A stretch of DNA of 63,104 bases from Chiloscyllium plagiosum. Taxonomy: Eukaryota. The notes under the pieces were generated by a model. It had not been told where the DNA came from, did no database searches, and worked only from the letters and a program-made list of their open reading frames with translations. A program made the position numbers and the translations under genes. How positions within the stretch are numbered: the stretch's first letter is position 1; each line of letters starts with the position of its first letter. Location of the stretch: assembly GCF_004010195.1 (NCBI RefSeq), contig NC_057752.1:11469669-11532772 (forward strand). Reading direction: 5' to 3'. Positions 4,930 to 45,593 of this stretch are shown here, piece by piece.

Positions 4930-5876
4930 TCAGATCAGACAGCAGAAACTGAAATGCTGGAGTGATTGATTGATTCGTGATTTGATTAATTGATTGATTT
5001 GAAGAAAGGGATATTTTAGCACACTCTTTAACTGCTGTCTGAACTTAGCCTGGATTCCTGCATAAATCACAGTATTTGTGCAGCAACTGAGGAGCTGCAG
5101 CATGAAGCCTAATTCCTTAACAAAATAACTTAGACGTATGGACCGATACCTAAAATTGAACATCCTGTTCCATATCAAATAAACCGTGAGCATTGACCAT
5201 AACAGGATGAAATTGGTTGAGATAACAAACAGTAAGCTAATGGATTTCCTCCGACTCTCCATCTCTGGGTCTCTGGGATTCTTCCCAATGGTGTGCGCCT
5301 GGAGTCTCCTGTGGGCTGTGCTGGTCACTAAAATGTGTCTGACGGTGAGAACATTGAGCAGCAGAATCAGGAGAAATGGGACACACGGGGTTAGAATGTA
5401 GTGGAGGAACTCGATTGTGACCCAGACACTGGAGTAATAAACATCCATTGTGACATAGCAAAACCAAGGGCTGTTCCATGGCAAATACTGATTCGTGAGC
5501 ATAAAATACCAGGAAATGTTCTTTAAACAGCTCAGCACAGTCACTGCTCCCAGAACCACAGCCGCCGTCTTCTCACTGCAATATTTACTTTTCAGCTTCT
5601 GGCAACAAATGGCCACAAACCGATCAAAGGTGAAAGTGACGGTGAACCAGACAGAGCAGTCAGTGGCTGCATAAAGCAGGACGGCATGGATACTACACAT
5701 GGGGATGGACAGCAGGAAATAAAACTGTTCCCGATAAACAATAGGAATGTGTCTTAATATCAGGTCGAAGATAATGACCAGTAGGTCCGCTGCTGCCATG
5801 GCCACCAGGTAACAACTGACACATGGAGACAATCCACAGCTTTTGGAAAGCAGGGTGAATATTGTAACTATGTTAA
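4930..5876 (-). CDS. GPR139/GPR142-like class A GPCR, gene A, exon 2 (TM1 end to C-terminus); with exon 1 gives 361 aa
   Basis: Open ORF with 7TM hydrophobic pattern: MAAADLL (D2.50), TM3 FDRFVAIC, ECL2 Cys (PWFC), TM5 TPCVPF, TM7 LSCCTNTVIY. Acceptor tttgctttccttgcAG|TTAAC (AG at 5878-5877). Splicing gives GGP-L-NIVTI, restoring the TM1 Asn. Confidence 0.9.
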
Positions 5877-6229
5877 CTGCAAGGAAAGCAAACAAGCTGA
5901 ATTACACATCACTCTAGGGGCAATATCTGCAGTTTGATTGAGGACTACTGAGATTTCCAAACGTGCTGCTGACTGATTGAAAAGTCTCTCTATGATTGCA
6001 TTTTGGAAGTCGATTCCTTTTCAATAAAATGGAAGGGGCTTCACCTTGCTAGATACATGTTGAGATGGGAGTCACGGACAAAGGCCATTGGTGGCTGGGC
6101 GCAGACCAAATTACAGCTCAACATCACTCCAGGAGGTGAACAGAAAGAAACTTCCCATTGCAGAGAAGTGCAGAACTTCTTCAAGGTGGACAAACCCCAG
6201 TAGAGAATTGCCAGTCAACGAAAGCAAGC

Positions 6230-8650
6230 TACCGCAACAAATCAAACAGAAACTACTGGAGAAACTCAGCAGGTTCTGTGGGAAGAGAAAGTGAGTTCGT
6301 GTCTCAAATCCCACGTGGCTTGTCAGCTCAGAAATGACCTTGAAGAAGAGCGATCCTTCTCTGTGATGGGATTTGTGTTTGAACGTTTCAGCGTGCACCG
6401 CCTTCATTGTTGTTTCCTCCTGCCGTTTGATCAAGCATTTGCAAAAACTGGCGTTCACAGCTACACCTCCTTCCTGAGCGACTGTGTCTCCTGTTCTGGC
6501 CTATCCCACATGGATTCCAACTGCAGTTCGTGATTTGAAAACCGATACCAGCATCTTCCGGTTAGATCACCCTCCTCTTCGAGTAGCTCCTGGGACCCAC
6601 AGCCAGTGTCATGGTTGCTGCTTGCAACACCCTCAACCTATCCATCAGCACCACCTCACGTTATTCTCAAAGCTGCCTTAGTCTGCCGTTACATCTCATT
6701 CTTCACCTCATTTGGTGCTTCTACAATCAGCTTTCTTTTTACCTCTTCCCCTCAGGTGCCAATGAAGGCGAGTTCCCAAAACTCAAGTGGACTGAAGTCC
6801 CTCTGACTTCATCTCCCCTTCCCTTTCCTCCAACTCCATCTCTTCTTCCAATCTCACCCCTTACAATATCCTCTGACCTTCCCTCTCTGATGTCAAAAGA
6901 TCTGTGCTAAACAAAAGGCTCGGCTTTCTCCCCAGACACCCCCCCCCCCCCACCGCCACAACGGATTTCAGTCATGACATGACGTTAATTCCCTTCAGTT
7001 GCTCTCCTCACCTACATTCCCACTCCTTCGCACAGGAGACCTCACAGCCCTCCACAGATCAGTCACCCACCTTCGAAATGCTACCTTCCCATGGAAAGCT
7101 CCCTTTCTCCTCTCGTGTGATCTCTCCATCGAGAAATGTTGACCATGACAGCGGCTGCCTTAATTTCTCTGCTCCCCTCATTCACTCTAACCAATATCCC
7201 CTTTGAACTCGCTGCTCTCCATTCTCTCTGGTCCAAACCTGACTTGTTGTCAGTCTCAACCTGGCAGAAACTGAGTGCCAAATTCCTTCCGCTGGTCCAG
7301 GAGCCCATCATTGAGCACCAAGCTATTGATTCCAGGATGGTCACTGATCTCATCTCCTCAGGAGATTTCCCCTCCATGATTCCCTACCTTATAGGCCCCC
7401 ACATCTATCCTTCGAAAAACCACAGACACAACCCTGGGAAATCCAGCATTTCAGAGTGCTCCTGCCACATTGAACAGCCCTCCTTGTATCTCAATGTGAT
7501 CTTTTTCCCACCTCGTTCAGTCTCATGGAATCCCCACAGCGTGGAAGCAGGCCATTTGGCCCATCAAGTCAACGCTGACCCTCCAGAGAGCATCCACCCC
7601 CACCACATAACCCTACATTTCCCATGGCTGTAATACATAACTGACACATCCCTGAACACTATGGGTAATTGAGCATGGCCAATCCACCCTAACCTGCACA
7701 TCTTTATAGTGTGGAAGGAAACCAGAGGACAGTGGGAAAACCACGCAGACATGGGGAGAATGTGCAAACTCCACACAGACAATCACTAGAGGCAGTAATC
7801 GAACCCAGGACCCTGGCGCTGTGAGGCAGCAGTGCTAACCACTGAGCCACCGTGCTGACCCCCCTTCCCATTTACATTTGTGACCCTCCAATGCATTACA
7901 TCAGTTCCAACAGTTTCCAGTTTCTGGGTCCTCTTCATCCTGCATGAGTCATCATTCCACACATCAATCTCCCATTTGTATCGGTTGGAGACTCTCTGGT
8001 CCTTCCTTGAAAAGCTGCCTGAACAGTACACCTCCACCACTCGCCCTCCTTCAACTTCAGAACTCCTTCCTACTTTGAACAACTGCTTCCTGTAACTTGT
8101 CTCCCATGTTCTCCCCAGTCAGTGGGTGTGACTATGGGTAACATGTAGCCCCCACTTATGGCTGTCTTTTTGCGTGTTATGGGAAGCATTCCATTCACTT
8201 GCACTCGATCTGACCATCGAGAATTGTTGATGTGACGTTGCCTTCCTCAGCTAAAGCTCGCTCTGAAACATCCATTATGTAGTTGGTGTTGGTTCCTACT
8301 CTTGCCCAGAACTGGGACAAAAAGGTTGGCAGTTTCCCTTCAAAATTCCATCTTTCTCTCATCTTCATCTGGTCCCTCTCTGACTCTTCCCTTCCTTGCC
8401 CTAAATTTCATTTCCATTTTTGGGAATAGGCTATCCACTGATATCCCTTACAAACCCATCCAATCTTATAGTCACCCTGACTACAATTCCTTACTCCGTG
8501 CTTCCTGCATTTCTCCATTCCATTCTCCTAGTTTCTCCATCTCCGTCATGTCTCTTCTGATGATGCCGCGTTTCACTAGGATGCCTCTGACTGTGCTTCT
8601 GTTTCCTGAACCAACCCTCCCAGCACAATGACGGGGTTCCCAAACTTTCT
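6230..8650 (+). mobile_element. Degenerate Penelope-like element (RT region), with a SINE inserted at 7524-7857
   Basis: GNRLSTDIPYKPIQSYSHPDY (ORF 8302-8631) resembles the Penelope RT C-terminal motif; a repeat-end-like piece lies at 6236-6310. Confidence 0.65.
7524..7857 (-). mobile_element. HE1/V-SINE-type SINE
   Basis: Same head, central domain and tail as 3203-3516. Confidence 0.9.
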
Positions 8651-8998
8651 TTCCACACCACCGGTCTCTGCATTCCCATCATCCTCTCTTTCCACACCAC
8701 CGGTCTCTGCATTCCCATCATCCTCACTTTCCACACCACTAGTGTCTGCATTCCCATCATCCTCTCTTTCCACACCACTGGTCTCTGCATTCCCATCATC
8801 CTCTCTTTCCACACCACCAGTTTCTGCATTCCCATCATCCTCTCTTCCCACACCACCGGTGTCTGCATTCCCATAATCCTCTCTTTCCACACCACGAGTC
8901 TCTGCATTCTCATTATCCTCTCTTTCCACACCACTGGTCTATGCATTCCCATCATCCTCTCTTTCCACACCACCGGTCTCTGCATTCCCATCATCCTC
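8650..8998. repeat. 39-bp minisatellite (TTCCACACCACCGGTCTCTGCATTCCCATCATCCTCTCT), about 9 visible copies, running into the gap
   Basis: Direct inspection. Confidence 0.95.
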
Positions 8999-9863
8999 NN
9001 NNNNNNNNNNNNNNNNNNNNNNNNNNNNNNNNNNNNNNNNNNNNNNNNNNNNNNNNNNNNNNNNNNNNNNNNNNNNNNNNNNNNNNNNNNNNNNNNNNNN
9101 NNNNNNNNNNNNNNNNNNNNNNNNNNNNNNNNNNNNNNNNNNNNNNNNNNNNNNNNNNNNNNNNNNNNNNNNNNNNNNNNNNNNNNNNNNNNNNNNNNNN
9201 NNNNNNNNNNNNNNNNNNNNNNNNNNNNNNNNNNNNNNNNNNNNNNNNNNNNNNNNNNNNNNNNNNNNNNNNNNNNNNNNNNNNNNNNNNNNNNNNNNNN
9301 NNNNNNNNNNNNNNNNNNNNNNNNNNNNNNNNNNNNNNNNNNNNNNNNNNNNNNNNNNNNNNNNNNNNNNNNNNNNNNNNNNNNNNNNNNNNNNNNNNNN
9401 NNNNNNNNNNNNNNNNNNNNNNNNNNNNNNNNNNNNNNNNNNNNNNNNNNNNNNNNNNNNNNNNNNNNNNNNNNNNNNNNNNNNNNNNNNNNNNNNNNNN
9501 NNNNNNNNNNNNNNNNNNNNNNNNNNNNNNNNNNNNNNNNNNNNNNNNNNNNNNNNNNNNNNNNNNNNNNNNNNNNNNNNNNNNNNNNNNNNNNNNNNNN
9601 NNNNNNNNNNNNNNNNNNNNNNNNNNNNNNNNNNNNNNNNNNNNNNNNNNNNNNNNNNNNNNNNNNNNNNNNNNNNNNNNNNNNNNNNNNNNNNNNNNNN
9701 NNNNNNNNNNNNNNNNNNNNNNNNNNNNNNNNNNNNNNNNNNNNNNNNNNNNNNNNNNNNNNNNNNNNNNNNNNNNNNNNNNNNNNNNNNNNNNNNNNNN
9801 NNNNNNNNNNNNNNNNNNNNNNNNNNNNNNNNNNNNNNNNNNNNNNNNNNNNNNNNNNNNNNN
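8999..9863. other. Assembly gap (865 N)
   Basis: Run of n. Confidence 1.
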
Positions 9864-10044
9864 TGCTGCACATCTCTATGACTCGATAATAACCTCACTC
9901 TCCCAACCTCTAATGATGACACTGGCTCAAATCCCCAGGCCTCGAGGCCTGTGCCATCGTTAACCCTGGGTCCTAATTAAGGCCTGGTCGGGGGATACAG
10001 GGCCTAAACCACACTGGTGCCCAGTGCCACAGACACACGGCTCT

Positions 10045-10530
10045 ATGCTATCTCAGCAGTAGGCCGGAAGTGAAGCCTGGGCCTTTCCAACCCCATTTGC
10101 CTGGGATTGAACACCACACTGGGTCTCAGATCCAGGACGGTCAGCAGCAGGCTGGAAATGAAGCCTGGGTCTTTCCTTCCCTTGGCGCCTGTGCTGGGTT
10201 GAGATCCGGCCTCGATCCGAGCTAACACAGCGCTAGGCCGGAAATGAGGCCTGGATCTTTCCTGCTCTCAGCACCCATGCTGGTTTGAGATCCGGCCTCA
10301 GTCTGAGCTAACTCAGCAGCAGGCCGATAATTAAGCCTGGGTATTCCCTTTCCTTGGCGCCCACGCTGCGGTGAGATCTGGCCTCGGTCCGAGCTCACTC
10401 GACGCTAGGCCGGAAATGAAGCCTGGGTCTTTCCTTCCCTGTGTGCGCATGGAACTTGGCGCCACAGTGGGAGCGACATGCAGGCTCGCTCAGCGCCTAG
10501 GCCGGAAGTCAAAATCCGGGCCTTTCCTGA
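10045..10530 (+). repeat. GC/CpG-rich tandem repeat, about 86-bp unit, 5-6 copies
   Basis: AGGCCGGAA-like anchors at 10061, 10149, 10235, 10321, 10407 and 10499. Confidence 0.9.
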
Positions 10531-10935
10531 AGGTAGGGCAAAGAACTGCGGAGGTCAGGAACAAGGAGAGAAAATGCTGGAGAAACTCAGCAAGGTGTGG
10601 CAGCATCTGTGAAGGGAGAGAGAGAAAGAGAGAGAAAGCAGAGATTCGGGTCCAGTTACCGTTCCTCAGACCGGCCAGGTTTGTAAAGAAGGTTTCTAAA
10701 GGACAGAGATAGGGAGGGGGTGTAGGGGCTGGAGGGTTACAGAGGTAGGGAGCGGGTTAGGGGGTTACAGAGATAGGAAGGGGGTGATTTCCTGAGACTG
10801 AGAGATGGATCCCTCTCCCTGGGGTGTGTGACTGTGACAGTGCGAGGTTTTTGAAGGTGGGAGCCTGTGTGAGAGAGGATTACATCGGTAATCCCCTCAG
10901 ACCCGCCACGATAGCAAATCCTTCACAGACCGAAA

Positions 10936-13215
10936 GAGAGAGAGAGGGACAGAGAGGGACGGGGGAGAGACAGGGTGAGTGAGAGAGAGAGAGAGAGAGA
11001 GAGAGACGGGGCCCGTGACAGAGAGAGAGAGAGAGGGAGAGAGGGGGGGGGGAGAGAGAGACAGAGGCAGAGAGAGAGTGAGGGAGAGGGGAGAGTGAGA
11101 GTGAGGGAGGGAGAGAGAGAGAGACAGAGGGAGAGTAGGATGGAGATGGAGACATTCCCATATCCCTGTCCCCAGTCTCTCTCCCATCCCATATCCCTGT
11201 CTCATGTTTCTCTCCCATTCCCATATCCCTGACTCTGGTCTCTCTCCCATCCCCATATCCCTGTCTCATGTCTCTCTCCCATCCCATATCCCTGTCTCGT
11301 GTGTCTCTCTCTCTCCCATTCCCATATCCCTGTCTCCTGTCTCTATCCCATTCCCATATCCCTGTCTCCTGTCGCTCTCCCCATCCCAATATCCCTGTAT
11401 CCTGTCTCTCCCGATTCCCATATCTCTGCCTCCTGTCTCTCTCCAATCCCCATATTCCTGTCTCCTGTCTCTTTCTCCATTTCCCATATGCCTGCCTCCT
11501 GTCTCTATCCCATTCCCATATCCCAGTCTCCTGTCTCTTTCTCCCATTCCCATATCACTGTCTCTCTCTCTCCCCATTCCCATATTCCTGCCTCCTGTCT
11601 CTATCCCATTCCCATATCCCTGTCTCCTGTCTCTCTCCCTATTCCCATATCCCTGTCTCCTGTCTATCCCATTCCCATATCCCTGCCTCCTGTCTCTCTC
11701 CCATTCCTTTATCCCTGCCTCCTGTCTCTCTCCCCCATCCCCATATCCCTGGTTCCTGTCTCTCTCTCCCCATTCCCATATCACTGTTTCCTGTCTCTCT
11801 CTCCCCATTCCCATATCCCGGTCTCCCGTCTCTCCCATTCCCATATCCATGTTGCCTGTCTCTCCCCAATTCTCATATCCCTGTCTCCAGTCTCTCTCCC
11901 ATCCCATATCCCTGTCTCCTGTCTCTCCCCCATTCCCTATGCCTGTCTCCTGTCTCTCCCCCATTCACATATCCCTGTATCTTGTCTCTCTCTCCTTATA
12001 TCCCTGTCTACTGTCTCTCCCATTCCCATATCCCTATCTCCTGGCTCTCTTCCCCATCCTGATATCTCTCTCGTCTTTCTCCCTCTCCCCATCCCCATAT
12101 CCCTGTCTCCCCATTCCCATATCCCTGTCTCCTGTCTCTCTGCCCCATTCCCATATCCCTGTCTCCTGTCTCTATCCCATTCCCATATCCCTGTCTCCTG
12201 TCTCTCTCCCCATTCCCATATCCCTGCCTTCTGTCTCTCTCTCCCCTTTCCCATATCCCTGTCTCCTGTCTCTCTCCCCCATTCCCATATCCCTGTCTCC
12301 TGTCTCTCTCCCCATTCCCATATCCCTGTCTCCTGTCTCTCTCTCCCCTTTCCCATATCCCTGTCTCCTGTCTCTCCCCCATTCCCATATCCCTGTCTTC
12401 TGTCTCTATCCCATTCCCATATCCCTGTCTCCTGTCTCTCTCCCCCATTCCCATATCCCTGTCTCCTGTCTCTCTCCCCATTGCCATATCCCTGTCTCTG
12501 GTCTCTCCCCCCCATTCCCATATCCCTGTCTCCTGTCTCTCCCATTCTCATATCCCTGCATCCTGTCTCTCTCTCTCCCCATTCCCATATCCCTGTCTCC
12601 TGTCTCTCTCTCTCCCCATTCCCATATTCCTGCCTCCTGTCTCTCCCCATTCCCATATCCCTGTCTCCTGCCTCTCCCATTCTCATATCTCTGTCTCCTG
12701 TCTCTATCCCATTCCCTCATCCCTGCCTCCTGTCGCTCTCCCCCATTCCATATCCCTGTCTCCTGTCTCTATCCCATTTCCATATCCCTGTCTCTCTCTC
12801 TCCCATTCCCATATCCCTGTGTCCTGTCTCTCTCCCCATCCCCATATCCCTGTCTCCTGTCTCCCCCATTCCCATATCCCTGTCTCTGGTCTCTCTCCCA
12901 TTCCAATATCCCTGTCTCTGGTCTCTATCCTATCCCTATATCCCTGTCTCCTGTCTCTCTCCCCATTCCCATATCCCTGTCTCCTGTCTCTCTCTCTCCC
13001 CATTCCCATATCACTGTCTCCTGTCTCTATCCCATCCCCATATCCCTGTCTCCTGTCTCTCTCCCCATTCCCATATCCCTGTCTCCTGTCTCTCCCCCAT
13101 TCCCATATCCCTGCCTCCTGTCTCTATCCCATTCCCATATCCCTGTCTCCTGTCTCTCCCCCCATCCCCATATCCCTGCCTCCTGTCTCTATCCCATTCC
13201 CATATCCCTGCCTCC
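10936..13215. repeat. (GA)n tract (10936-11150) followed by a ~2-kb satellite, unit about 30-36 bp CCCATTCCCATATCCCTGTCTCCTGT(CT)n
   Basis: Direct inspection; strong pyrimidine/purine strand asymmetry. Confidence 0.95.
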
Positions 13216-13677
13216 CTGTCTGCTGGTGTGCAGGGCCGTGGGGTAAGGACGGGGGCCTGGCCCCTGGGGAATTCTTGGACCAGACACAATGGGCCATTCA
13301 GCCTTGCTCCCCTGTTCCGTACCCATTGTCCGACCCAACCCCGTGTTCCCGCGCTCTCCCCCATAATCCTTTGACACCTGAGAACTGGATCGGACAACTT
13401 CCTGAAAACAACGCTTTAGTCTCAACCACTTCCTGTCTCCCCCAACTCTCTGGTGAAGACATTTCACCCCCCCACCCCCCCCATTTCAGTCCGATCCTGT
13501 ATCCTTAGACCATGAACCCCACCCCCCGACACTGGTCATTAGGAACATCCTTCCTGTGTTTCCCCTGACCCGAATCTCTGCTTTCTCTCTCTCTCCCTTC
13601 ACAGATGCTGCCACACCTGGCTGAGTTTCTCCAGCATTTCATCTCCTTGTTCCTGACCTCCGCAGTTCTTTGCTCTA

Positions 13678-13868
13678 GTCTCTGCATTCCCATCATCCTC
13701 GCTTTCCACACCACCAGTCTCTGCATTCCCATCATCCTCACTTTCCACACCATTGGTCTCTGCATTCCCATCATCCTCTCTTTCCACACCACCGGTCTCT
13801 GCATTCCCATCATCCTCTCTTTCCACACCACCGGTCTCTGCATGCCCATCATCCTCTCTTTCCACACC
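13678..13868. repeat. Second array of the 39-bp minisatellite, about 5 copies, same orientation
   Basis: Same unit as 8650-8998. Confidence 0.95.
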
Positions 13869-14610
13869 TCCTCTCTCCTGAAAAATATACCTCCGAGTTT
13901 TGAACTTTGCTGCGCGAAGGAAAAGACCCTGGCTATTCCCCTTATGTGTGCCCCTCATGATTTTATAAACCTCTAAAAGGTCATGTAGACTGGTGCCAAT
14001 AAACTGCCCATTCTGTGGCACGAGGTTTCTGCCAAGCCTGGCGAGCTAAGCAGGCCATAGTTGTGTTTTGGGTGGTGAGAAGCGATGGTTTAAAACTCCA
14101 CGCTGTGAGCTGTGTAGAGACCAAGCTAAAGAATTCTTCACAAATCGCAACAGAAATTGCTGGAACAACTCAGCAGGTCTGGCTATATCTGTGGAGAGAA
14201 ATCAAAGTTAATGTTTCAGGTTCAGTGATGTTGTTTCAGAACTGGACTGGAAACATTCCGAATTTTGGTTTTCATTTCTGATTTCCAGCATCCGCAGTTC
14301 TTTGGGCTTCTTTTTTTAAGCAAAGTATTCTTCATTTCGGTGAGTGACACATGTCTCAAATGTATGCAATTCAAGCTTGTGCAAGGCACAGCTAGTACAA
14401 TCAAACCTACCCAAGACAAGATGGCCTCGTGGTATTATCACTAGGCTATTACTCTAGAGGACCCTGGTAATGTTCTGGGGACCTGGGTTCAAATCCTGCG
14501 ATGCCAGATGGCGGAATTTGAAATCTAATGCATATTTGTAATTAGGAGAAACATGAAACAGTTATCAGGAAAGAAGCTCCCTTCCTTACCTGGACTACAA
14601 TCACAACAAA

Positions 14611-14910
14611 GCAGCTCAGTGGTTAGCACTGCTATCTCAGCGCCAGGGACCCGGGTTCAATTCCAGCCTTGGGTGACTGTTTGTGTGGAGTTTGCACATT
14701 CTCCCCGTGTCTGCGTCCAAAGATGTGCATGTTAGGCGGATTGGCTGTGCTAAATTGCTTACAGTTTCCAGGGAATGTGTAGGTTAAATGGATTGGCCGT
14801 GGGAAATGCAGGGAGAGGTTAAGGGGTTGGGTTTGAGTGGAATGCCCTATAGAGAGATGGTGTGAACTCAATTGGTTAACTGGCCTGCTTTCACACTGTA
14901 CAGATTCCAT
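14611..14910 (+). mobile_element. HE1/V-SINE-type SINE
   Basis: GCTCAGTGGTTAGCACTGC..GGGTTCAATTCC head and central domain. Confidence 0.88.
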
Positions 14911-15454
14911 GTCAGCAAGTGGAACGTGTTTTGCAAGAGCAACTGTTTAATAACAATCCCTGGACAATGCGAAATGCATCTGAAAATAGATAAGGGGATA
15001 ATATGATGGGCTGAGCTGCTCACTGTTTTGAGAGTATGAAAATTGATGCACATATATGAACATGCCAATGAAAAGCATAACCCCTTGAAACAACAAAAAA
15101 AAGAAAATGCCCTAATTTCCGTCTTAAAAAGATGACCGTGCATTTTAACTCAGCGGCCTCCTTGTTCTACACTAACCCACAAGAGAAAACATCATTTCGA
15201 CATCAACTTGGCAAGACTCCTCAGGCAAAAGTGAGGACTGCAGATGCTGGAGATCAGAGTCGAGAGGGTGGTGCTGGGTAAGCACAGCAGGTCAGACAGC
15301 ATCCGAGGCGCAGGAGAGTTGATGTTTCAGGTAAAAGCCCTTCCTTACCAACTTCAGTCAAATCTGAAGGGATGAGTGTGTGTTCAATTACATGGAAAAT
15401 TATGGGAAACATTCAAGTAGGGGAAGGCTCAGCAGAGGTTATTAAAGTTTCCAG

Positions 15455-16165
15455 AACAAGGGAGGGTTTGAACTATAGCGAGAGGTTGAATAGGCTGGGG
15501 CTGTTTTCCCTAGAGTGTCAGCTCGGACCGAGGCCAGATCTCACCGCAGCGTGGGCGCCAAGGAAAGGAAAGACCCAGGCTTCATTTCCGGCCTTGTGCT
15601 GAGTTAGCTCGGATCGATGCCGGATCTCAACCCAGCGGGGGCACCAAGGGGAGGAAAGACCCAGGCTTCATTTCCGGCCTAGCGCTGAGTGAGCTCAGAC
15701 CGAGGCCGGATCTCAACCCAGCCTGGGCGCCGAGAGCAGGAAAGACCCAGGCTTCATTTCGGGCCTAGCACTGATTGACCTGGATCTGACACCCAGACTG
15801 GGACTGGGTGCGACACTGAGAGAAAAGGCAAGACTCAGGTTTTGTGAGGGGGTCGTGGATAGGGTGAATAGCCAAGGTCTTTAACCTGGGGTAGGTGGGG
15901 TGATGTCCGGGACTCGAGGGGAAAGATATGAAAGAGACCTAAGGGGCAACTTTTTCACACAGAGGGTGGTACGTGTATGGAATGAGCTGCCAAAGGAAGT
16001 GGTGGAGGCTGGTACAATGACAGCATTTAAGTGGCATCTGGATGGGTATATGAATAAGAAGGGTTTAGAGGGATATGGGCCAAGTGCTGGCAAATGGGAC
16101 TAGGTTAGGTTAGGATATCTGGTCGGTATGGATGAGTTGGACCAAAGGGTCTGTTTCCGTGCTAT
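15455..16165 (+). mobile_element. CR1 3' fragment interrupted by the 86-bp GC-rich array
   Basis: LNRLGLFSLE before 15519; RGNFFTQRVV..WNELP after 15845. Confidence 0.8.
15520..15840 (-). repeat. Inverted array of the same 86-bp repeat, about 3.5 copies
   Basis: AAAGACCCAGGCTTCATTTCCGGCCT is the reverse complement of the 10045-10530 unit. Confidence 0.9.
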
Positions 16166-16169
16166 ATAT

Positions 16170-18475
16170 TCTGAATTTGGTGATGAGGCAGACTTGATTA
16201 GGCAGCTTAAGGTGAAGAAACCCTTAGAGAACAGTGAACATAATATAATAGGAATCTCCTTGCAGTTTGAGTGGGAGAAGCTGGAATCAGATGTAACAGG
16301 ATTACAATTGAGTAAAGGGACATGAGCGAGGAGCTGGTCAGAGTGGATTGGAAGGGAGGCCTAGTGGTGAAGACAGTGGAGCAGCAATGATAGGGGTTTC
16401 TGGGGGTAATTTGGGAGGGTCAGCAGAAATGCACCCCAAGGAAAAAGAAACAGACTAAGGGGAGGATGAGGCAGCCGTGCCTGACAAGGGAAGTCAGGGA
16501 CAGCATAAAAGCAAAAGAAAATGCATACAATGAGGTAAAGCTAAGTGGGAAGCCAGAGGATTGGGTAGCCTTTAAAAACCAGCAGATAACAGCTAAAAAC
16601 AGCAATAAAGGGGGAAAAAGATGAAATATGAGAATAAGCTAGCCAGTAATAGAAATGAAGATTGCAAGAGTTTTGTTTGATATATGAAAAGTAAGAGAGA
16701 GGCAAGAGTGGACGTTGGACCGCTGGAGAATGAGACTAGAAAAGTAGCACTAGGGAACAAAGAAATGGTGCAGGAACTGAACAGGAACTTTGCATCAGGT
16801 TACACAGCGGAAGACACCAGCAGCATACCAGAACTTCAAGAGAGTCAGGGGACAGAGGTGAGTGCAGTGGCCATCACTAAGGAGAAGGTGCTGGGGAGGC
16901 TGAAGGTGGATAAATCACCCAGACCAGATGGACTACATCCCAGAGTTCTGAAGGAGAGAGCTGAGGAGATTGCAGAGGCATTGGTGGTGATCTTCCAGGA
17001 ATCACTGGGGTCAGGGAGGGTCCCAGAGGACTGGAAAATGGTTAATATAACACCCCCCCCCCCCTCAGTTTAAGAAGGGAGGGAGGCAGAAGATAGAAAA
17101 CTATAGGTTGGTTAGCCTGACATCAGTCATTGGTAAGATGTTAGAGTCCGTTATTAAGGGTGAGATTGTGGAGTACTTAGATGTGCACATTAAAATAGGG
17201 CTTAATCAGCACGGCTTCATCAAGGGGAGGTCATGCCTGATAAATCTGTTAGCATTCTTTGAGAAAGTAATGAGCAAGTCAGACAAAGGAGAGCCAATGG
17301 CCATGACCAATATGAATTTCCAGAAGGCCTTTGACGAGGTGCCGCACAGGAGGCTGCTCAATAGGATAAGAGCCCATGGTGTGAGGGGCAAGGTACTGGT
17401 ATGGAAAGAGGATTGGCTGATGGGCAGGAGGCCGAGAGTGGAGATAAAGGGGTCTTTTTCAGGATGGCAGCTGGTGACTATTGGTGATCTGCAGGGGAAC
17501 TGTGTTGGGATCACAACTAGTCACGTTATTCATTAATGATCTGGAAAACAACTGAAGGCATTATTACTAAGTTTGCCGATGACACAAGGGTAGGTGAAGG
17601 GACAGAGTGTTGAGGAAGTGGGGACGCTGCAGAAGGTCTTGGACAGGCTAGGGGAGTGGGCAAAGAAGTGGCAGATGGAATACAATGTGGGAAAGGGTGA
17701 GGTTATGCACTTTGATTGGAAGAAGAGAAGTATAGACTATTTTCTCAGTGGGGAAAGGCTTTGGAAATATGAAACACAAAGAGGCTTGGGAACGCCAGCT
17801 CAGCTTTCTCTGAAGGTTAACATGTAGGTTCAGTCGGCAGTTAGGAAGGCAAATGCAATGTTAGCGTTCATTGTGAGAGGGCTAGAATACAAGAGCAGGG
17901 ATGTACTGCTGAGGCTGTATAAGGCTCCTGTCAGACCATATTTGGAATATTGTGAGCAGTGTTGGGCCCTGTATCTAAGGAAGGATGTCCTGGCCTTGGA
18001 GGGGGTTTACAAGAATGATCCTGGGGATGAGGGACTTGTCATATGAGGAGGGGTTGAGGACTCTAGGTCTGTACTCAATGGAGTTTGGAATGATGAAGGG
18101 GATCTGATTGAAACTTGCAGAATACTGAGAGACCTGGATAGAGTGGACATGGAGAAGATATTTCCACTGGTGGGAGAGACTGGGACCTGAGGGCACAGCC
18201 TCAGAGTGAAGGGATGACCCTTTCGAACTGAGATAGGGAGGAAGTTCTTCAGCCAGAGGGTGGGGAATCTGTGGGACCCATTGCCGCAGAGGGCTGTGGA
18301 GGCCAAGTCACTGTGTGTATTTATGACAGAGATAGATAGGTACTTGATTGGTACGGGGATCAAGGGTTTTGGGAGCAAGACAGGAGAACGGGGTTGAGAA
18401 GCATACCAACCATGAGCAAATGGTCATGCAGACTCGATGGGCCAAATGGCCTAGTGCTACTCCGACATCTTATGG
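16170..18475 (+). mobile_element. CR1 LINE, 5'-truncated (RT to 3' tail)
   Basis: ORFs 16684-18046 with KSPRPDGLHPRVLKE, QHGFIKGRSCL, FQKAFD and WQMEYN motifs. Confidence 0.9.
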
Positions 18476-18999
18476 AATCACCCCTCACTCTTCCAAAACT
18501 CCAGTGACCAACAAATTCTGTCTGTCCAGTGTTTTCCTCATGAGACAACCTGCTGATTGCAGGTATTAATCACCTCCTCACCTCCTTCAATACACTTCCT
18601 CTCTTCCTTAAGTAAGGAGACCAAAGCTGTACGTAGTATTCAAGCAACAAAGTCCTGTGGAAACGAAGCACAACCTGTTCCATTTTATTTTCCAGATTTT
18701 TTTTCATCAACCTGTTCAGAGATATTCTGTTCTGGAGCAAGTGGGATTTGAACCTGGATCTTATGACCCACTTTATATTCTATTCCTACTGTAATAAAGG
18801 CTAGCATCCCATTAGCTCTGTTTAGAACCTGTTGGACCAGCATGCTAACGTTAGTGATTCACACACTGCAAGAGCATGATCCCTTGCCACTTCGGAATTT
18901 CGAAGTCGTTTACCATGTAAAAACAAAAGTGCTTTTCTTTTGTTATTCGTATAAAAGTGAACAACTTTACACTTGGCCCAATCATAATCCAGAAGGGCT

Positions 19000-19222
19000 C
19001 ACAGTGAGGGAGTTGGTTCGCTGAGACAGTTGGTTTGTAATGCAGAGTGCCACTAATAGCATGGGTTCAAATCCCTTACCAGCTGAAGTTACCATGAAGG
19101 ACTCTCCTTCTCAACCTCTCCCCTCACCTGAGACATGGTGGCCCTCAGATTAAACCACCACCCATTGCCTCTGCCTCTGTCTCTCTTAAATGATAGAGTG
19201 GGACTCTGGTGACTTTACCTTT
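19000..19222 (+). mobile_element. Third old tRNA-like SINE family (second copy at about 28172-28362)
   Basis: Shared GGTTTG.AATG..GAGT..GGTT..CTGA..TCTCAAC.TCTCCCCTC.CCTGA..GGTGACTT.ACCTT. Confidence 0.5.
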
Positions 19223-19449
19223 CAGCAATGTGAGTGGAGAAATAATGGAATGGCTGGGTTTGCTGATGTATGGCTAAGGTCAGCATTTTGGGTGTACTGT
19301 TGGTCAGACACCATTGGTAGCTTGGAGGCTGACCAACAGAGGATTGTAACAGCGAAATCTGGCTTTCCCAACAAAGGTATAAACAACAGAAGCTTGAGCC
19401 GGTGGGAGATATTATGGTGGTGGTCGTACATTGGATTTCTTTATTCTTT

Positions 19450-19772
19450 CACAAGATGAGGGCCTTGCTGGCGAGACCAGCATTCCTTGCCCATCCCTAA
19501 TTGCCCAGAGGGCAGTTAAGAGTCAGCCACATTGCTGTGGGTCTGGAGTCACGTGAAGGCCAAACCAAGTAAGGATGGCAATTTCCATCCCTAAAAGGAC
19601 GTTAGTGAACCAGACGGGTCTTTCCAACCATCAGCTATGGTCATTACTTGATTCTTAATTTCCAGATTTGTTTTTTTGAATTCAAACAGGATTTGAACCC
19701 AGGTCCCCAGAACATTACCTGGGTTTCTAGATTAACAGTCCAGAGATAATACCACCTCCCCATCGCCTCCCC
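19450..19772 (-). mobile_element. Second tRNA-derived SINE family (related 5' piece at 14420-14600 +)
   Basis: Head GATGG..GTGGTATTATC..TAATGTTCTGGGGACCTGGGTTCAAATCC on the - strand; tail AATTAGGGATGGGCAAG.AATGCTGG. Confidence 0.65.
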
Positions 19773-20123
19773 TGTGAGGGGCCATATCAGGGCCAAATAC
19801 AGAAATAGAGACCTTGGGATTGGGAACACAGTTTATCAAGAACAAGAGACAATAACTCAATGTTCCCAACGTGTAAATAACTAATAACAGTGATGCAATG
19901 AATTTTGACTTCTATTAGTCTACTTGTGCAGGACCCCACTGGAAGCAAAGAAGCCAGAATGAACAAGATCACTAATACCGTTAGCAGTCTGTAGGGTGAA
20001 TAACTGATTACAGAGATTCACCAGGAGCGACAGAAGCAGTAAGGAGAATGAAGTAAATTTCAGGCGTAGTTATACAGTTAAACAAAGAAGACAGGATGAA
20101 TAATTGTATAGAGAGAGACTTAC

Positions 20124-20262
20124 GAGGACCGCCAACAATAGCCAGGATAGGATAGTAGAAGTATTGAATAATATAAAGTGTGACTTCAATCCGATATGGT
20201 ATTGACATCACGTTATAAAATGTAGCAAGTTCGTTCAGAAACAGGGAAAAACTCTTGTCCAT
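20124..20262 (-). CDS. Gene A exon 1 (N-terminus and first half of TM1: MDKSFSLF...YYPILAIVGGP)
   Basis: ATG at 20262; 46 codons plus 1 nt, then donor C|GTAAGT. Phase matches the exon-2 acceptor. YPxLAxVGxP matches gene B exon 1. The 14.2-kb intron spans an assembly gap, so the pairing is inferred. Confidence 0.8.
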
Positions 20263-20359
20263 TGTTGGAAAGTTCGCACCTACTGCTTTCAGATTCTCCT
20301 CGTGTCCTCCAGATCTGCTGTGCCCTCAGGCCCAGGCTTGAGAGTCCCACTGATGCAAT

Positions 20360-20500
20360 GGCACTGCACATTGAGAAAGGAGTCTTTCATTAATGTCAGA
20401 GGGAACGCTCTCACAGGCACACTTCAGGCTCCTGAGACAGCCATTTATTCCAGTTCACTGAACAAACACTGTTCACGTCTTTCAATTCATCACGTTTTAT
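20360..20500 (-). promoter_or_regulatory. Conserved upstream non-coding block of gene A (putative core promoter)
   Basis: Aligns by eye with 45650-45791 (GAAAG(G)AGTC..ATTAA..GGAA..CTCTC..CACA..AGG..GAGA..CAGT..CTGAACAAA..TTTCAAT..TTTTAT) at a similar distance from the shared MD start. Confidence 0.6.
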
Positions 20501-32100: not shown

Positions 32101-33790
32101 AGATGAGGGGGGAAATTAAATAGAGTTGGTGAGTTAGCTAAAAAGCACCTAAAGAGGGCGTGGTGTAGAATGAAGCAAGTGGCAGATAAAAACTCTGAGA
32201 TGTGGATGTTTTCCCGAGGGGATAACTTGTTAGTACTGTTACCAGTGATAGGAGATCCCTTCAAAGCCAGGTTTAGTGGTCCCTATCAAATTGAACTAGC
32301 TAGTAAAGATGCCAGGTTGGAAAAAACGATATCGAGTATATTGTGTGAACATATTGAAACCGTATTACACTAGAGAGAAAAACCAGAGAAACAGGTGTTA
32401 GTTACTGCCCCTCAGAGTGAGGTCTCAAATCCAGATGATGTGGATTTTGAGGGGCCTCAAAATAGATTTAAAAATGACGACGTCCTTGAGGAGTGGGATA
32501 GGTTAGTAAGCTATCTGTCCCGGGAGCATAGAACACAGTTGAAAGGTTTTTGTTACTACAGTACAAGGACATATATAAGAATCAGATGATGAGGACTAAT
32601 GCTATTGTACATGAAGTAGACGCAGGGAATACTGCTCCAATAAAACAACACCACTATCGGCTTAACCCTTTCACAGCCAGACAGGTCCAGATGAAGGTGG
32701 AGGCCATGCTCGACGAGAATATCATCAAACCAAGCCAGAGCGAGTGGAGTTCGCCGATTGTCTTAGTTCCCAAACCTGATGGGACTCAACGATTCTGTGT
32801 GGAATAGTGGAAAGTCAATGGCATTACAAAATCAGACTCATATCCAATTCCTAGATTGGAGGACTGTATCGAGAAAGTCGGACAAGCCAGTTACATCACC
32901 AAGTTGGACTTAATGTGTGGTTACTGGCAGGTACCTTTATCAGAGATGGTGAAAGACATTTCTGTGTTTGTAACCCCAAATGGTCTATATCAGTTTAAAG
33001 TGATGTCCTTTGGAATGAAGAATACACCCGCCACATTCCAAAGACTCATGAACTTAGTTGTGGCTGGGTTAACAAACTGCGCAGTCTATTTGGACAATGT
33101 AGTGTTCTTTAGTAAGTCCTGGAAAGATCATGTGGTTCAGTTGGCAGAGCTCTTTGAACGGCTAGGAGAAGCAAAACTGGTGATAAACTTAAATAAAACT
33201 GAATTCGCGAGAGCAGAGGTGACGTTCTTGGGACATAACATCTGTCATGGAAGGTTGACCCCACGGAATGCAAAACAAAGGTCATCTAGGAATTTCCATA
33301 ATCAACATTGAAGAAAGAGGTGCTTTGATTCTTCGGACTCAACGGATTCTATCGGAAATTGGCTCCAAACTTCAGCAGTGTAGTGGCACAATTAACAGAT
33401 TTGATGAAGAAGAACACAAAATTTCAGTGGGCAGAACCACACCAGGAGGCATTCGATCACTTGAGATCAGTATTAACACTAAACCAGTTTTGGCTACACC
33501 AAGTCTTTCAAAACCTTTTAAAGTCGCCATCAATGCTAGTGACATTGGAGTTGGAGCTGTACGTCCATAGGAAGATGAGGATGGGATTGAATTGCCAGTT
33601 GGTTACTTTTCGAAGAAGATCAAAATCCACCAGAGGAAATACAATCGAAAAGGAATTATTGAGTTTGGTACTGGCCTTACAACATTTTAATGTGTATGTC
33701 ACGAGCAATGTGATGGAGACGATGCTGTAAGGATCACAATCCTCTTACTTTCTTAGAATGCTTTAAAGACAAGACTATGAGACTATTTTG

Positions 33791-40550: not shown

Positions 40551-40670
40551 GAGTGACAGATGGAGTCTGTGATCTCATTTTGTCCCGTTAGTCTCATTTT
40601 CTTGCCCAGACATCCTCCCTAAGACTTCACTTTGCCACTGATCAAAATCAGAAGCCGGTGAAATAATTGC

Positions 40671-41578
40671 TTAATGAGTGCAGTCAACTAATCGATTAAT
40701 ACGAGCAAAGGGAAATTTTAACACATTCTTCCACTGCTCTCTGAATTTAGATTGGGTGACAACATAAATCACGGTGTTTGTGCAGCAACTCAGGAGTTGC
40801 AGGATGAAGCCTAATTCCTGGACGTACCAGTCTATCTGGACAGACTCATACCCTAAGAACCACATCCTTCTCCATATAGAATAGAACATGAACGTTGACC
40901 ATAAGAGGATAAAATTGGCCGAGATAACAAACAGTAAAATGATGGATTTCCTTCGGCTCTCCATCTCTGGATCTCTGGGACTGTCCCCATTGGTGGGAGC
41001 CCGGAGTCTCTTGCGGGCTCTGCTGCTCACTAAGATGTGCTTGACTGTGAAAACATTGAGCAACAGAATCAGGAGAAATGGGACCCCTGGGGTTAGAATG
41101 TTGTAGAGGAACTCGACTGTGACCCAGACCTGAGATAGCAAAACGTCGGTTGTAAAATCGCAAAACCATGGGAGGTTCGCCAGTGAATAGTGACTTGTTA
41201 ACATAAAATACCAGGTGATGTTCTTCAAACAGCTCACCACAGTCACTGCGCCCAGAACCACAGCAGCCATTTTCTCACTGCAATATTTAGTTTTCAGCTT
41301 CTGGCAACAGATGGCCACAAATCGATCGAAGGTGAAAGTGACGGTGAACCAGACAGAACAGTCAGTGGCTGCATAAAGCAGGATGGCATGGATATTACAC
41401 ACGGGGATGGACTCCAGGAAATAAAATTGCTCCGAATAAACAATTGGAATATGTCTCAATATCAGGTCCAGAATAATGACCAAGAGATCCGTGATGGCCA
41501 TGGACAGCAGGTAACTTGTGACACATTTGGAAAGACCACATTTGTTGCGAAACAGGATAACAATCGTCACTGCATTAA
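40671..41578 (-). CDS. GPR139/GPR142-like class A GPCR, gene B, exon 2; with exon 1 gives 363 aa
   Basis: Open 7TM ORF colinear with gene A, no indels (FDRFVAICC, PWFC, LSCCTNTVIY). Acceptor ccattcctcacAG|TTAAT (AG at 41580-41579). Spliced junction reads GIP-V-NAVTI. Confidence 0.9.
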
Positions 41579-42714
41579 CTGTGAGGAATGGAAACAAGTG
41601 GTGAAATTACACTACTGAGTGTGTGTGAAAATAACAACTCTGTTGATGAATTATTGAGACTTTCAAAAGATTCCATTCATCCACTTGAACACAATTGTTT
41701 TTAGACAAGCAAAGAGGATGATCTGTGATACAGTACAAGATCAGAAAAAAAAGGATGACTTAAGCTAAAGATGTGGAGGCAATGGAAGCAAGATTAATAT
41801 GGCACCAGGGGGGACTGTGGGCCAACTATGTGTAAAGGGCTATAGCTGGGTGCCTGGGAGAGCTGGTGGTTGTGGAGGACCAGCTTATGTTGAACAATAC
41901 CCACCTCACTCTCTTTCCTGGGTTAGGTGTAGTTTGCCAATGTGTTTCTGAAAATCCTGGGGTGGTTATTGCAGATTATGCCACTCTTCCTTCTTCATTG
42001 AGCCTTCCCTTTCTGCAGCCTCTGCACAATATTTTGATCACCAGATGAGAGTACTGAGCCCCTTCAGCATGTTACACTTGGACAGGAGCAATCCACAATG
42101 ACCCTGCAGGTTCTTACCTGTCTGCCAAAGAGGACAATCAACATTCAATGGATCCCACAAGCATTGGCTCAGACATAAAGTCTGCAGTATCGTCACTTCC
42201 AGCGGTGAATGAGAAACGAAACAGTGAACATGAGATGGAGCTCCCAGAAGTGTCCTCATCTCAACATTGGGGGACCCCAGTCTTGCATCTATCTTTAGAC
42301 CAACCTGGTCTCCTCCTGAGGCCCCCATCCTCATCCATTTTCAAGTAATTCCATTCCTTCTGCATGACGTCAGGAAAAAGGGCAAAACGCCCCGGGTGCT
42401 ACAAAGACTGTGGGCCCTTGAGACGTTGTGGCATTGGCACTGAAAGGGGCACGCAGTGGGTCACTAGATTCCAGTCCGGCCATCGTCAGGGCAGCTGACC
42501 GGCACGTCGGAAACTTGTGCGGGGAAGGAAGACTGCAACAAACCCAGGACAGGTTACAGCCAGACTAGTCCACTCTCGATCATCAGCCACGCATTCTTGC
42601 ATGAGTACAGAGGTCTGCATGCTCTGAACGAGTAACTAAACACACAGAGGTCCTTCAGTCATTTGACCCTGTGCTAGAGAGTTGAGAAGAGGCCGGATTG
42701 CATACAACACCTGC

Positions 42715-44950
42715 TCATAGAATCATCAAATCATGCACCGCAGAAGAGGCCCTTCGGCCCCACGAGTCCCTCCTGCTAAAAATACACAACTACCTCTAAT
42801 TGTCCCTCTTTCCCACAGTAGACCCTTAGCCTTGAATGTTATGACATTTCAAGGACTCATTGAAGTACTTTTTAAAGGTTGTGAGGTTTCCCACCTCAAC
42901 TGCACTCCCAGGAAATTCCAGACCCCCATCACCCTCTGGGTGAAAACATTTTTCCTCAAATCCCATCTAAACCTCCTCGCTTTCACTTTAAAATGATGCC
43001 TCCTTATTACTGACCGTTTGACTAAAGGGAACAGCTGCTTCCTATCCACCATGTTCCTGCCCCTCATAATCTTATACACCTCTATCAGGTCCCCCCCTCA
43101 ACCTTCGCTGCTCTAAAGAAAACAGCCCAAGCTTGTCCAGCCTCTCTTTATTGCTAAACTACTCCATCCCAGGCAACATCCTGGTGAATCTCTGAACTCC
43201 GTATGGTACAATCCCAACCTTCCTATAGTATGGGGACCAGAACTGCACACAGTTCTCCAGTTGGGGCCTGACCAGAGTCCTGTACAGCTGCAACATCACC
43301 TCCCTGCTCTTATAATCTTTGCCATGACAGAGAAAAACACTGTTACACTGTCTGCACATGATTTTTAAGGGCACGTTTGCATCATGGAACTCCTCAGTCT
43401 CATTTATGTATTCATCAAAATTGACCTTGTGCAGACCTGCCTGATAGACATCACCATATTGTCCTACCGATATCAGAATTCAGTGAAAAATCCCCTCACA
43501 AACACATCACTCTCTCACTGTTCATCGAAACATTCCCCTCCCTCTCTCACTCGCTTGGACAAATTAAAGCACTCCATCTCCCCACTCCCACGCCGAACTC
43601 AGAAAGCTGAGTCAGAAACTGTTTCTTTCGAGATAAGAAGATGCAGACAGTGTCACCCAGAACATTTCTGGTTATCTGTATCTCCAGCACCAGTGGCATG
43701 AGACATCACAACCAGGGAGGGCTACATTGACTTTAAACAGGGTCTTAGATAAATACTTGATGGGAAAAGATTTATAGAATCATGGGGAGTAGACAGTGAA
43801 ATTCGGTTAATAGGAATGTCATTTGGAATACTGCGTACAGTTCAGGTTGCCACATTACCGAAAGGATGTGGATGCTTTAGAGAGGGTGCAGAGGAGGTTC
43901 ACCAGGATGTTGCCTGGTATGGAGGGCACTAGCTATGAAGAAGGGTTGAGTAGATTAGGATTATTTTCATTCGAAAGACGGAGGTTGAGGGGGACAAAAT
44001 CATGAGAGGTATAGACAGGATGGATAGTAAGAAGCTTTGTCCCAGAGTGGGGGACTCAATTACTCGGGGCCACGAGTTCAACATGAGAGGGGAAGAGTTT
44101 AAGGGAGATATGCATGGAAAGGTCTTTATGCAGAGAGTGATGGGTACCTGGAACACGTTGCCAGCGGAGGTGGTAGAGGCAGGTACGATAGCATCATTTA
44201 AGATATATCTAGACAGATACATGAATGGACAGGAAGCAGAGGGATACAGACTCTTAGAAAATAGGCGACAGGTTTAGGTAGAGGATCTGGATCAGCGCAG
44301 ACTTGGAGGGCCGAAAGACATGTTCCTGTGCTGTAATTTACTTTATTCTTGTTGGAATGTTAAATTGGAGGTATTAATACAACAGGAGTCAGAGAGTTAT
44401 ATTGTCATACAGCACAGAAACAGACCCTTCGGCCCAACCAGCCCACACCGACGGAAATCGCAAACTAAACTAGTCCCACCTGCTTGCACTTGGCCCATAT
44501 CCCTCCAAACTTTTCCTATTCATGAATTTATCTAAAACCTTGTAAATGTTGTAACTGTACCTGCATCCACCACTTCCACTGGCAGTTCATTCCACACACG
44601 AACCACTCTCTGTCGAAAAAAGTTGCCCCTCATGCCCTTTTGAAATCTTTCTCTTTTCGCCTTAAAAAATATGCCCCTGTTTTGAACTCCCCCACCCCAG
44701 GGAAGAGGCCCCACCTCTGCCCCTTATGATGTTATAAACCTCAATAAGATAATCCCCTCAACCTCTTGTGCTCTAGTGAGAGAAGTTCCAGCCTATTTTT
44801 ATATCTCAAACCTTCCTTTCCTGACAAAATCCTGGTAAATCTCTTCTGAATCCTCTCCAGTTTTATAATATCCTCCCTATGACAGGGTGACCAGAACTGG
44901 ACACGGTTCTCCAGAACAGGCCTCGCCAACATCCTGTACAACCTCAACAG
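42715..44950. mobile_element. Three CR1 3' fragments in gene B's intron (42715-43330 -, 43820-44350 +, 44395-44950 -)
   Basis: LYRTLVRPQLE.CVQFWSP, ERVQRRFTRMLPG and FTQRVM..WN peptides, plus CR1 tails. Confidence 0.85.
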
Positions 44951-45409
44951 GAGTCAAAGCAGGTCAATGACCACAGGGTCAATGAGTGCATGGAGCTTAT
45001 TATAAATTGGGATCCGGATTGAAGCGTTTTGGCCGATAATGTTTCCAAGTTTGCTGAAGTCACAAAACTGGGTGGGCTTGTGAGTTGTGAGGTGGATGCA
45101 AAGAGGCTTTATGAATGTTTATAACTGGGAGGGTGACTGGCAAAAATTACAAAATGGTATTGTCGAGTCAGGAGTTAACAAAGGCACAGCTTTGAATTTT
45201 GGCTGGAGCTGAACAGGAATTGAGAAGGAATGGGGATGGAGAGAGGACAGGAAATCAGAAATCTGCGCTCATTCAAGGGGATTGTGAACAGTCCCGATCA
45301 GCCTCAGAAATTCGAAGAGAAGGACTTTGCATTTCCCAGATTTTAATTGACAAGGACATCAATGCAATAACATGGTTTGTCGAATCAATAACCATTCAGA
45401 GAGCCTTAC

Positions 45410-45593
45410 CAGGGATGCCAACAACAGCCAGTACTGGGTAGAAACCTGCTTGAATGACCTCAATTATGTATCGGATGCGCCATGATAATGATATCCAGTC
45501 AAGAGAAAGCATGTAAAGACTCCAGGCTAAACCCCTGTCCATTGATGATCCATTCCAGGCTGTGGTTGTCAGATTCTGATCTCTCCTCTCCAT
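45410..45593 (-). CDS. Gene B exon 1 (MERRDQNLTT...FYPVLAVVGIP)
   Basis: 61 codons plus 1 nt, then donor G|GTAAGG; same phase-1 position as gene A. N-glycosylation sequons NLT and NGS. An alternative in-frame start MDRG aligns with gene A MDKS. Confidence 0.85.

Follow-up and report, generated by a model that had tools for sequence, protein, structure and literature searches.

GPR139 is a class A G-protein-coupled receptor (GPCR) whose gene, according to the accessible text of PMC7318219, has two exons and whose orthologues are 70–96% identical across vertebrates (the human protein being 70% identical to that of zebrafish and 92% to that of chicken); the same source names GPR142, which is also activated by aromatic amino acids, as its closest relative. 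Cartilaginous fishes are held to possess few GPCRs and very few smell receptors, yet to have keen chemical senses, and the few known receptors reported in shark noses are mainly V2Rs (PMC10116579 and PMC8455134, in their accessible parts). In the present study we analysed a 63,104 nt stretch of the genome of the shark Chiloscyllium plagiosum (contig NC_057752.1, positions 11,469,669 to 11,532,772 of the forward strand; hereafter the window), which carries two genes, A and B, that on their sequence are predicted to be intact two-exon class A (rhodopsin-like) GPCR genes. Both belong to a receptor family shared by sharks, rays and chimaeras, which sequence searches put at several hundred genes or more.

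Both genes lie on the minus strand. Coding exon 1 of gene A (20124..20262; 46 codons plus one base) encodes the N-terminus and most of transmembrane helix 1 (TM1), and exon 2 (4930..5876; 315 codons plus the stop at 4930-4932) extends from the end of TM1 to the C-terminus, with a 14.2 kb intron between them (5877..20123) that contains satellite arrays, a reverse-transcriptase fragment and an assembly gap. Gene B has a coding exon 1 of 61 codons plus one base (45410..45593), a 3.8 kb intron (41579..45409) and an exon 2 of 302 codons (40671..41578; stop at 40671-40673). The corresponding minus-strand open frames run from 4930..5901 (323 aa, gene A) and 40671..41606 (311 aa, gene B). In each gene exon 1 ends one base into a codon and the introns are therefore of phase 1; both sit, as read from the letters, one residue before N1.50. 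For gene A we read an ATG at 20262, a donor CCTC/GTAAGT after 20124 and an acceptor CCTTGCAG/ before 5876 (the exon 2 acceptor being TTGCTTTCCTTGCAG/), giving a spliced product of 361 aa, and for gene B an ATG at 45593, a donor CCTG/GTAAGG after 45410 and an acceptor CCTCACAG/ before 41578 (exon 2 acceptor CATTCCTCACAG/, with a pyrimidine tract and CAG preceding 41578), giving 363 aa. These splice sites bear out the description, in an earlier note on this DNA, of two same-strand paralogues sharing a phase-1 intron in TM1. Its spacing of about 36 kb between the second exons agrees with the 35.7 kb that separates the exon 2 starts, and its 87 exon 2 mismatches at about 71% identity without indels were reproduced by BLASTP (218/305 residues identical, 0 gaps, E 6e-152). 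Both products exceeded the Pfam 7tm_1 cut-off of 30.5 bits, gene A with 64.5 and gene B with 72.6.

Gene A exon 1 was located by means of the gene B exon 1 peptide (tblastn, 20301-20125, 33% identity, E 3.9e-7), and the annotated N-termini of the shark homologues P0011 and P0103 match it with 54 and 48% identity respectively (tblastn); gene B exon 1 is 56% identical to the N-terminus of P0003. The gene A ATG is at the family-conserved position, where it aligns with the ATGs of the near copies described below, and an in-frame TGA lies upstream of it at 20328-20326. A start of gene B at its first ATG (45593) rather than at the family-conserved ATG (45542) lengthens the N-terminus by 17 residues, among which are an NLT and an NGS sequon, and several more ATGs precede the start in 45594-45680, one of them 10 nt upstream and out of frame. 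No further exon-like matches were found between exon 1 and exon 2 of gene A, and we infer the pairing of these exons, since the intron is 14.2 kb long and includes the assembly gap (8999-9863). At the other end, the gene A frame continues for about 12 residues beyond the usual family stop (window 4930-4968); as its alignments to paralogues read through their TAA, gene A seems to have lost that stop.

The size of the family was assessed in public proteins and in the shark's own genome (3.56 Gb in 101,977 contigs). Gene B matched 2,167 public proteins at E ≤ 1e-3 among 3,343 candidates, and the 120 matches listed came from 10 shark species only, with 53–78% identity, nearly all of them automatically named 'probable G-protein coupled receptor 139'. 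In its own genome the gene B protein returned 8,586 first-look candidates; every one of the 131 matches scored reached E ≤ 6.2e-135, and an internal stop was lacking in 112, counted from the listing. A 23 nt degenerate motif from TM3 (encoding TDCSVWFT) had 687 exact matches genome-wide (334 + 353), whereas its reversed control had none, and this figure is a lower bound because a single mismatch loses a copy. These data clearly show hundreds of family loci, rather than the one or two copies that had been named beforehand as the finding to look for against an expansion. The first 100 motif matches, ordered by contig, cover contigs C4 to C8 only, and 83 of them fall within the interval 0.28–59.7 Mb of the 108 Mb contig C8, in both orientations and in many cases with 10–40 kb between neighbours, so that this contig looks unusually rich in these receptor genes. 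Many other family copies are found on small unplaced contigs.

We then took every fifth of these 100 matches as a sample of 20 loci, which come from three contigs and by construction all have an intact motif. Exon 2 was intact in five, broken by stops, frameshifts or truncation in 11 and cut by an assembly gap in four, i.e. 5/16 of the judgeable copies are intact. Assembly gaps were seen inside the coding exon at five sampled loci on contigs C7 and C8 (L103, L108, L109, L110 and L120), indicating that the assembly undercounts and fragments the receptor family. The family evolves by birth and death.

A library of representatives clustered at 50% identity extended its range: 733 clusters matched with E ≤ 1e-3, of which 113 reached E ≤ 1e-30, and 30 representatives were looked up by name. 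Relatives occur in other cartilaginous fishes (Leucoraja skate and Hypanus stingray at 38% identity, Callorhinchus chimaera at 47%) and in bony vertebrates (coelacanth 32%, salamanders 28% and a teleost 31%). The lineage-specific expansion proposed in the earlier note therefore stands, being clustered and far larger than had been guessed, but its restriction to sharks does not, given the skate, stingray, chimaera and bony-vertebrate relatives. The annotated N-termini of P0133, P0137, P0234, P0174, P0100 and others match retroelement debris, so that the first exon is probably wrong in many public models of these genes. No publication describing this expansion was found in the literature searched, which does not cover every subscription journal or supplement, and the term 'GPR139-like' did not occur there.

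The relationship to GPR139 depends on how it is sought. In a single-sequence search gene B matched human GPR139 with 22.9 bits (E 5e-4), in fifth rank behind receptors that include NMUR1, CCKBR and LPAR6. When a profile built from 26 sequences of sharks and rays was searched against solved structures, GPR139 (human structures 7VUG-7VUJ and 9M42) came first, with 82 bits and E 2.5e-22, the next match having E 2.8e-15. According to the accessible part of PMC5430874, the activation residues of GPR139 are F109(3x33), H187(5x43), W241(6x48) and N271(7x38). At these agonist-contact positions gene B has Y, N, W and F and gene A has Y, Y, W and F, so that gene B is identical at only one of four (the W), the alignment in TM5 being weak. 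GPR139 and the family, both class A, share W3.41, N5.58 in place of the usual Y and an NPxxY motif without its proline (NFFLY in GPR139, NTVIY in the family), as read from the HMMER alignment, whereas they differ in the hundreds of copies of the shark genes and in their T at P6.50. The weak single-sequence score, the differing contact residues and the profile match together indicate receptors that are related to GPR139 but are not GPR139; with the hundreds of copies, this supports the view already put forward that A and B are not true GPR139 orthologues, and they are probably not orthologues of GPR142 either. Neither true GPR139 nor GPR142 was seen among the 150 library representatives listed, 30 of which were checked by name. 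The shark family would lie beside the GPR139/GPR142 pair.

Three bony-vertebrate orphans named 'probable GPR139' (coelacanth P0244, salamander P0249 and teleost P0250) are 28–32% identical to B over the full length. In the clusters at 90% identity that were consulted, each species record has a single such gene and not hundreds. The best solved match of coelacanth P0244 is again GPR139, and at only 70 bits (E 1.8e-18) this suggests that the bony-vertebrate orphans are also GPR139-related non-orthologues. Orphans adjacent to GPR139 and GPR142 in coelacanth, gar and fishes have been named 'GPR210A/B' in the accessible text of PMC6504862; P0244, P0249 and P0250 are possibly the same genes, although the identifiers could not be linked.

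To place A and B in the family, we used a quick maximum-likelihood tree of 69 rows, drawn without true GPR139 and GPR142 sequences, with support from the SH-like approximate likelihood-ratio test (SH-aLRT). Genes A and B fell in a 32-row clade (100 SH-aLRT) with every shark species named in the tree labels, and species-specific groups were seen for Heterodontus, Heptranchias and Pristiophorus. The coelacanth, salamander and teleost genes lay inside the cartilaginous-fish radiation on long branches, where their placement is unsure; the branch to the outgroup had 100 SH-aLRT. The two genes are not sisters, as first B and then A branches off below a group of carpet-shark and own-genome copies (93 SH-aLRT, not starred). 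The closest own-genome paralogue is 78% identical for gene A and 76% for gene B. Comparison of A with B gave 0.188 nonsynonymous (dN) and 0.508 synonymous (dS) substitutions per site. Since dS is 0.508 and no paralogue exceeds 78% identity, we regard A and B as old single lineages that have been kept open. The claim that they form a tandem pair is thus not upheld in the sense of a recent pair. Among 27 other own-genome copies examined, 23 form a 'core' with 88–92% protein identity and a dS of 0.13, and their near equidistance fits a recent burst.

The dN/dS ratio for A against B was 0.37, well below the value near 1 that the earlier note, in conjunction with a lack of spliced transcripts, had named as speaking against its reading. 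In addition, neutral simulation at 0.17–0.25 substitutions per site left only 0.1–0.8% of copies of either exon 2 free of stops. Among the 23 core copies the median dN/dS was 0.51, and the ratio was 1.08 in the extracellular loops and helix tops and 0.24 in the remainder, a partition that was picked after the entropy profile had been seen; outside the extracellular loops none of 253 pairs exceeded 1. A separate count with loops defined on an AlphaFold model gave 138 nonsynonymous to 51 synonymous differences in the loops and 226 to 223 elsewhere (Fisher p 1e-7). Between A and B themselves, 21/45 loop residues and 59/244 others differ. Purifying selection acts on the helices and the intracellular portions, and the loops are near-neutral in rate. 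Positive selection on the loops was not accepted, as the ratio is about 1 and pairwise counts cannot separate it from missing constraint.

The AlphaFold model was that of P0003, a protein sharing 75% of its residues with B (predicted local distance difference test score 82.4, predicted template modelling score 0.81), and for that protein rather than for A or B themselves it has seven transmembrane helices, a β-hairpin in extracellular loop 2 (ECL2) and helix 8; the ESM Atlas returned only generic GPCR clusters. Across the A/B subfamily (125 sequences) D2.57, R2.61 and D3.37 are invariant and H3.28, T3.36, E5.39, E7.36 and Q7.42 nearly so. The 29 positions that, like the motif conventions used here, we take to be canonical for the class A pocket were not more variable than other helix positions in this subfamily (p 0.53), in which the variable sites cluster in the three extracellular loops (ECL1, ECL2 and ECL3) and at the helix tops (5.43, 6.51, 6.58, 7.32 and 7.35). 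Across 26 family-wide sequences, in contrast, mean pocket entropy was 2.17 against 1.23 at other helix positions (p 3e-6), although the difference between the pocket and the rest of the extracellular half was marginal (p 0.05). Eight of the 29 positions differ between A and B. The aligned residues therefore point to a pocket that differs between subfamilies and is fixed within that of A and B. Among the class A switch residues, N1.50, D2.50, C3.25, the ECL2 cysteine, D-R and W6.48 are present and Y3.51, P6.50 and P7.50 are replaced.

Our favoured reading is that A and B, as class A receptors distantly related to GPR139, may serve as chemical sensors for outside or ingested compounds, to which we give slightly less than an even chance. 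We rank a chemosensory role first because the copy number, clustering, pseudogenes, species-specific clades and pocket diversity between subfamilies resemble those of chemoreceptor families. The odorant (OR) and trace-amine (TAAR) receptors are likewise large, clustered class A families with many pseudogenes, lineage clades and pockets that differ between subfamilies. The likeness is one of mode of working and not of membership, OR52c matching gene B only at E 0.79. OR and TAAR genes are single coding exons, whereas the shark coding region is split by an intron, and the largest shark subfamily varies in its loops and not in the helix pocket. The ligand would bind in an extracellular vestibule above the conserved polar pocket (D2.57, R2.61 and D3.37, with H3.28, E5.39, E7.36 and Q7.42), and the receptor would activate its G protein via the D-R-F motif and W6.48, with differences in the loops and vestibule setting the specificity of each copy. 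Judged purely by its residues, such a charged site might, at a guess, accommodate zwitterionic molecules, for instance amino acids or short peptides.

Several observations weigh against this reading. Within the subfamily of A and B the deep part of the pocket is kept constant, unlike that of odorant receptors, and near-neutral loops are common among GPCRs generally and are no proof of diversifying selection. The class A switches depart from the usual residues (Y3.51 to F, P6.50 to T and P7.50 to T, giving N-T-x-x-Y as NTVIY), so that signalling competence is assumed. The O/E (EBF) site TCCCNNGGGA had no match in the 5' regions of A and B, even with 2/8 mismatches allowed, and gene A has no TAATTR site (gene B has two, against a background of 0.18 per 230 nt). 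Published work on catshark, in its accessible parts, reports that the olfactory neurons are all microvillous and express V2R (PMC10116579) and that a brain-and-olfactory library had no GPCR among its 50 most specific genes (PMC11979771). The V2R/OlfC receptors, a family of dynamic number and modest size, are in the same accessible text the one family shown to be expressed in shark olfactory epithelium (PMC10116579); they are of class C and unrelated in sequence to A and B, for which they may be a functional counterpart.

A much bolder version of the chemosensory reading would make this family the sharks' missing main chemoreceptor repertoire, with hundreds of intact genes tuned at the vestibule to amino acids or peptides and independent of OR, TAAR, V1R and V2R; we consider this doubtful.

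The first alternative is internal signalling: the copies would sense the body's own peptides, amino acids or metabolites in cells of the brain, gut or endocrine system, as GPR139 and GPR142 do, and would have been multiplied in cartilaginous fishes. In its favour, the profile places GPR139 ahead of all other solved receptors (E 2.5e-22, the match that follows having 2.8e-15), the peptide receptors NMUR1 and CCKBR are the closest single-sequence matches, the deep polar pocket is kept within the A/B subfamily, and A and B are without an O/E site. However, receptors for endogenous ligands do not normally come in hundreds of copies of which about two thirds are pseudogenes, nor do they normally form species-specific clades, and the pocket differs strongly between subfamilies; we therefore hold internal signalling to be unlikely. 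A set of immune or barrier sensors in leukocytes and epithelia, recognizing microbial or parasite products and with loops whose change is driven by pathogens, would fit the near-neutral or faster extracellular loops (1.08 against 0.24), the birth-and-death turnover and the presence of chemokine receptors among the better profile matches. Variable loops are, however, not specific to immune receptors, and we know of no immune GPCR family near this size, which makes a role of this kind distinctly unlikely.

The favoured chemosensory reading and the remaining alternative, repeat-driven amplification of a cassette, both bear on what surrounds the coding exons. In A, B and 29 other copies homology begins about 215 bp before the start codon, and these conserved 5' regions, likely promoter plus 5' untranslated region, span 20263..20480 (about 215 bp) in gene A and 45594..45810 in gene B, both on the minus strand. 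The shared region has a TTAATNA box and AT-rich homeodomain-like words, and that of gene B contains TAATTAAT, CTAATTG and a TATA-like box, TTAATAAG. A protein search recovered exon 1 of near copies in only two of ten 9.5 kb upstream regions, whereas a DNA search succeeded: a 351 nt query made of the gene B 5' region and exon 1 gave 40 scored loci at 70–75% identity from 1,190 first-look candidates. An EBF-like site with two mismatches is present in 29/29 of the other copies, where the background is 0.9 per 230 nt; over the 31 promoters, 5/31 have one at one mismatch and 0/31 a perfect one. An olfactory-type promoter with O/E and homeodomain sites was rejected for A and B, which have no EBF-like site.

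The limits of the repeated unit were examined in 29 copies with 1.5 kb flanks and 10 copies with 10 kb flanks. In the latter ten the shared unit reaches from the promoter to a point 400–600 bp beyond the stop codon, after which come gaps and low-complexity DNA rich in CT/GA. A seemingly sharp 3' end 126 bp past the stop proved to be a breakpoint confined to one copy. In these 29 and 10 copies the unit ends showed neither terminal repeats nor a poly(A) tail nor a transposase, although gaps limit the view, and a transposon-carried cassette is unsupported in the absence of such hallmarks. That repeat-driven amplification produced mostly functionless by-products, with A and B as mere survivors without a distinct role, would account for the 23 roughly equidistant copies (88–92% identity, dS 0.13), the similar unit limits in 10 copies, the 11/16 broken copies and the many on small unplaced contigs, but it is very improbable given unit ends without terminal repeats, poly(A) tail or transposase, the purifying selection on helices and intracellular parts (0.24), reading frames kept open in A and B over a dS of 0.5 with a neutral probability below 0.01, and a family older than the shark–chimaera split.

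Additional family members flank the window. The 100 kb to its right contain four more full-length paralogues and two fragments, the paralogues being 44–53% identical to A and B, whereas no family copies were found in the 100 kb to its left. In window coordinates the paralogues lie at ~72.6–73.5 kb (minus strand), ~99.0–99.9 kb (plus), ~108.2–109.0 kb (minus, truncated in TM7) and ~129.6–130.4 kb (minus), and the fragments at 75.3 kb and 150.9–151.6 kb. Three intact flank copies placed in the tree belong to a well-supported subfamily different from that of A and B (99 SH-aLRT). From +72.6 to +130.4 kb (contig 11542280–11600117) three copies of a second subfamily, about 90% or more identical by eye, lie on the same strand at 21–36 kb spacing, the middle one being that truncated in TM7; this trio stems from a recent local triplication next to A and B, which are older. 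Probable first exons were noticed at +77.6 and +111.0 kb.

The gene A intron contains a composite satellite block (window 8648–15778), abutted by the assembly gap at 8999-9863. It comprises 39-mer arrays (8648–8998 and 13678–13868), a 2 kb CT-rich 32-mer array of 64 copies (11153–13221) and 86-mer arrays in opposite orientation (10141–10440 and 15520–15778). CT/GA-rich tracts followed by gaps, similar to this block, were also seen downstream of other family copies. Homology between the gene A 39-mer and a 40 bp repeat in the introns of near copies was considered and rejected, there being no likeness by eye. All reverse transcriptase, endonuclease and integrase reading frames of transposons in the window are fragments of at most 352 aa, so that the earlier note was right to call every one of them broken. 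Broken retroelement stretches, including lone reverse-transcriptase fragments, occur at 382-1534, 17051-17536, 23513-25631, 29942-33311, 37266-38401, 49817-54732 and 59899-63056. Within these are broken endonuclease and reverse transcriptase pieces of the long interspersed element type (24804-25631 with 23513-24571, and 51257-54732) and broken integrase and reverse transcriptase resembling a long terminal repeat element with a SCAN-like gag piece (29942-33311); a zinc-knuckle gag-like frame spans 62069-62995.

Taken at its strongest, namely as the main repertoire, the family would overturn the view that a few dozen receptors serve shark smell and taste. Automated names ('probable GPR139') hide the family and assembly gaps undercount it. 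With hundreds of loci, evidence of selection and a chemoreceptor-like turnover, it is a concrete candidate for the missing shark receptors, and even if it is not sensory it would rank among the largest lineage-specific receptor expansions known in vertebrates.

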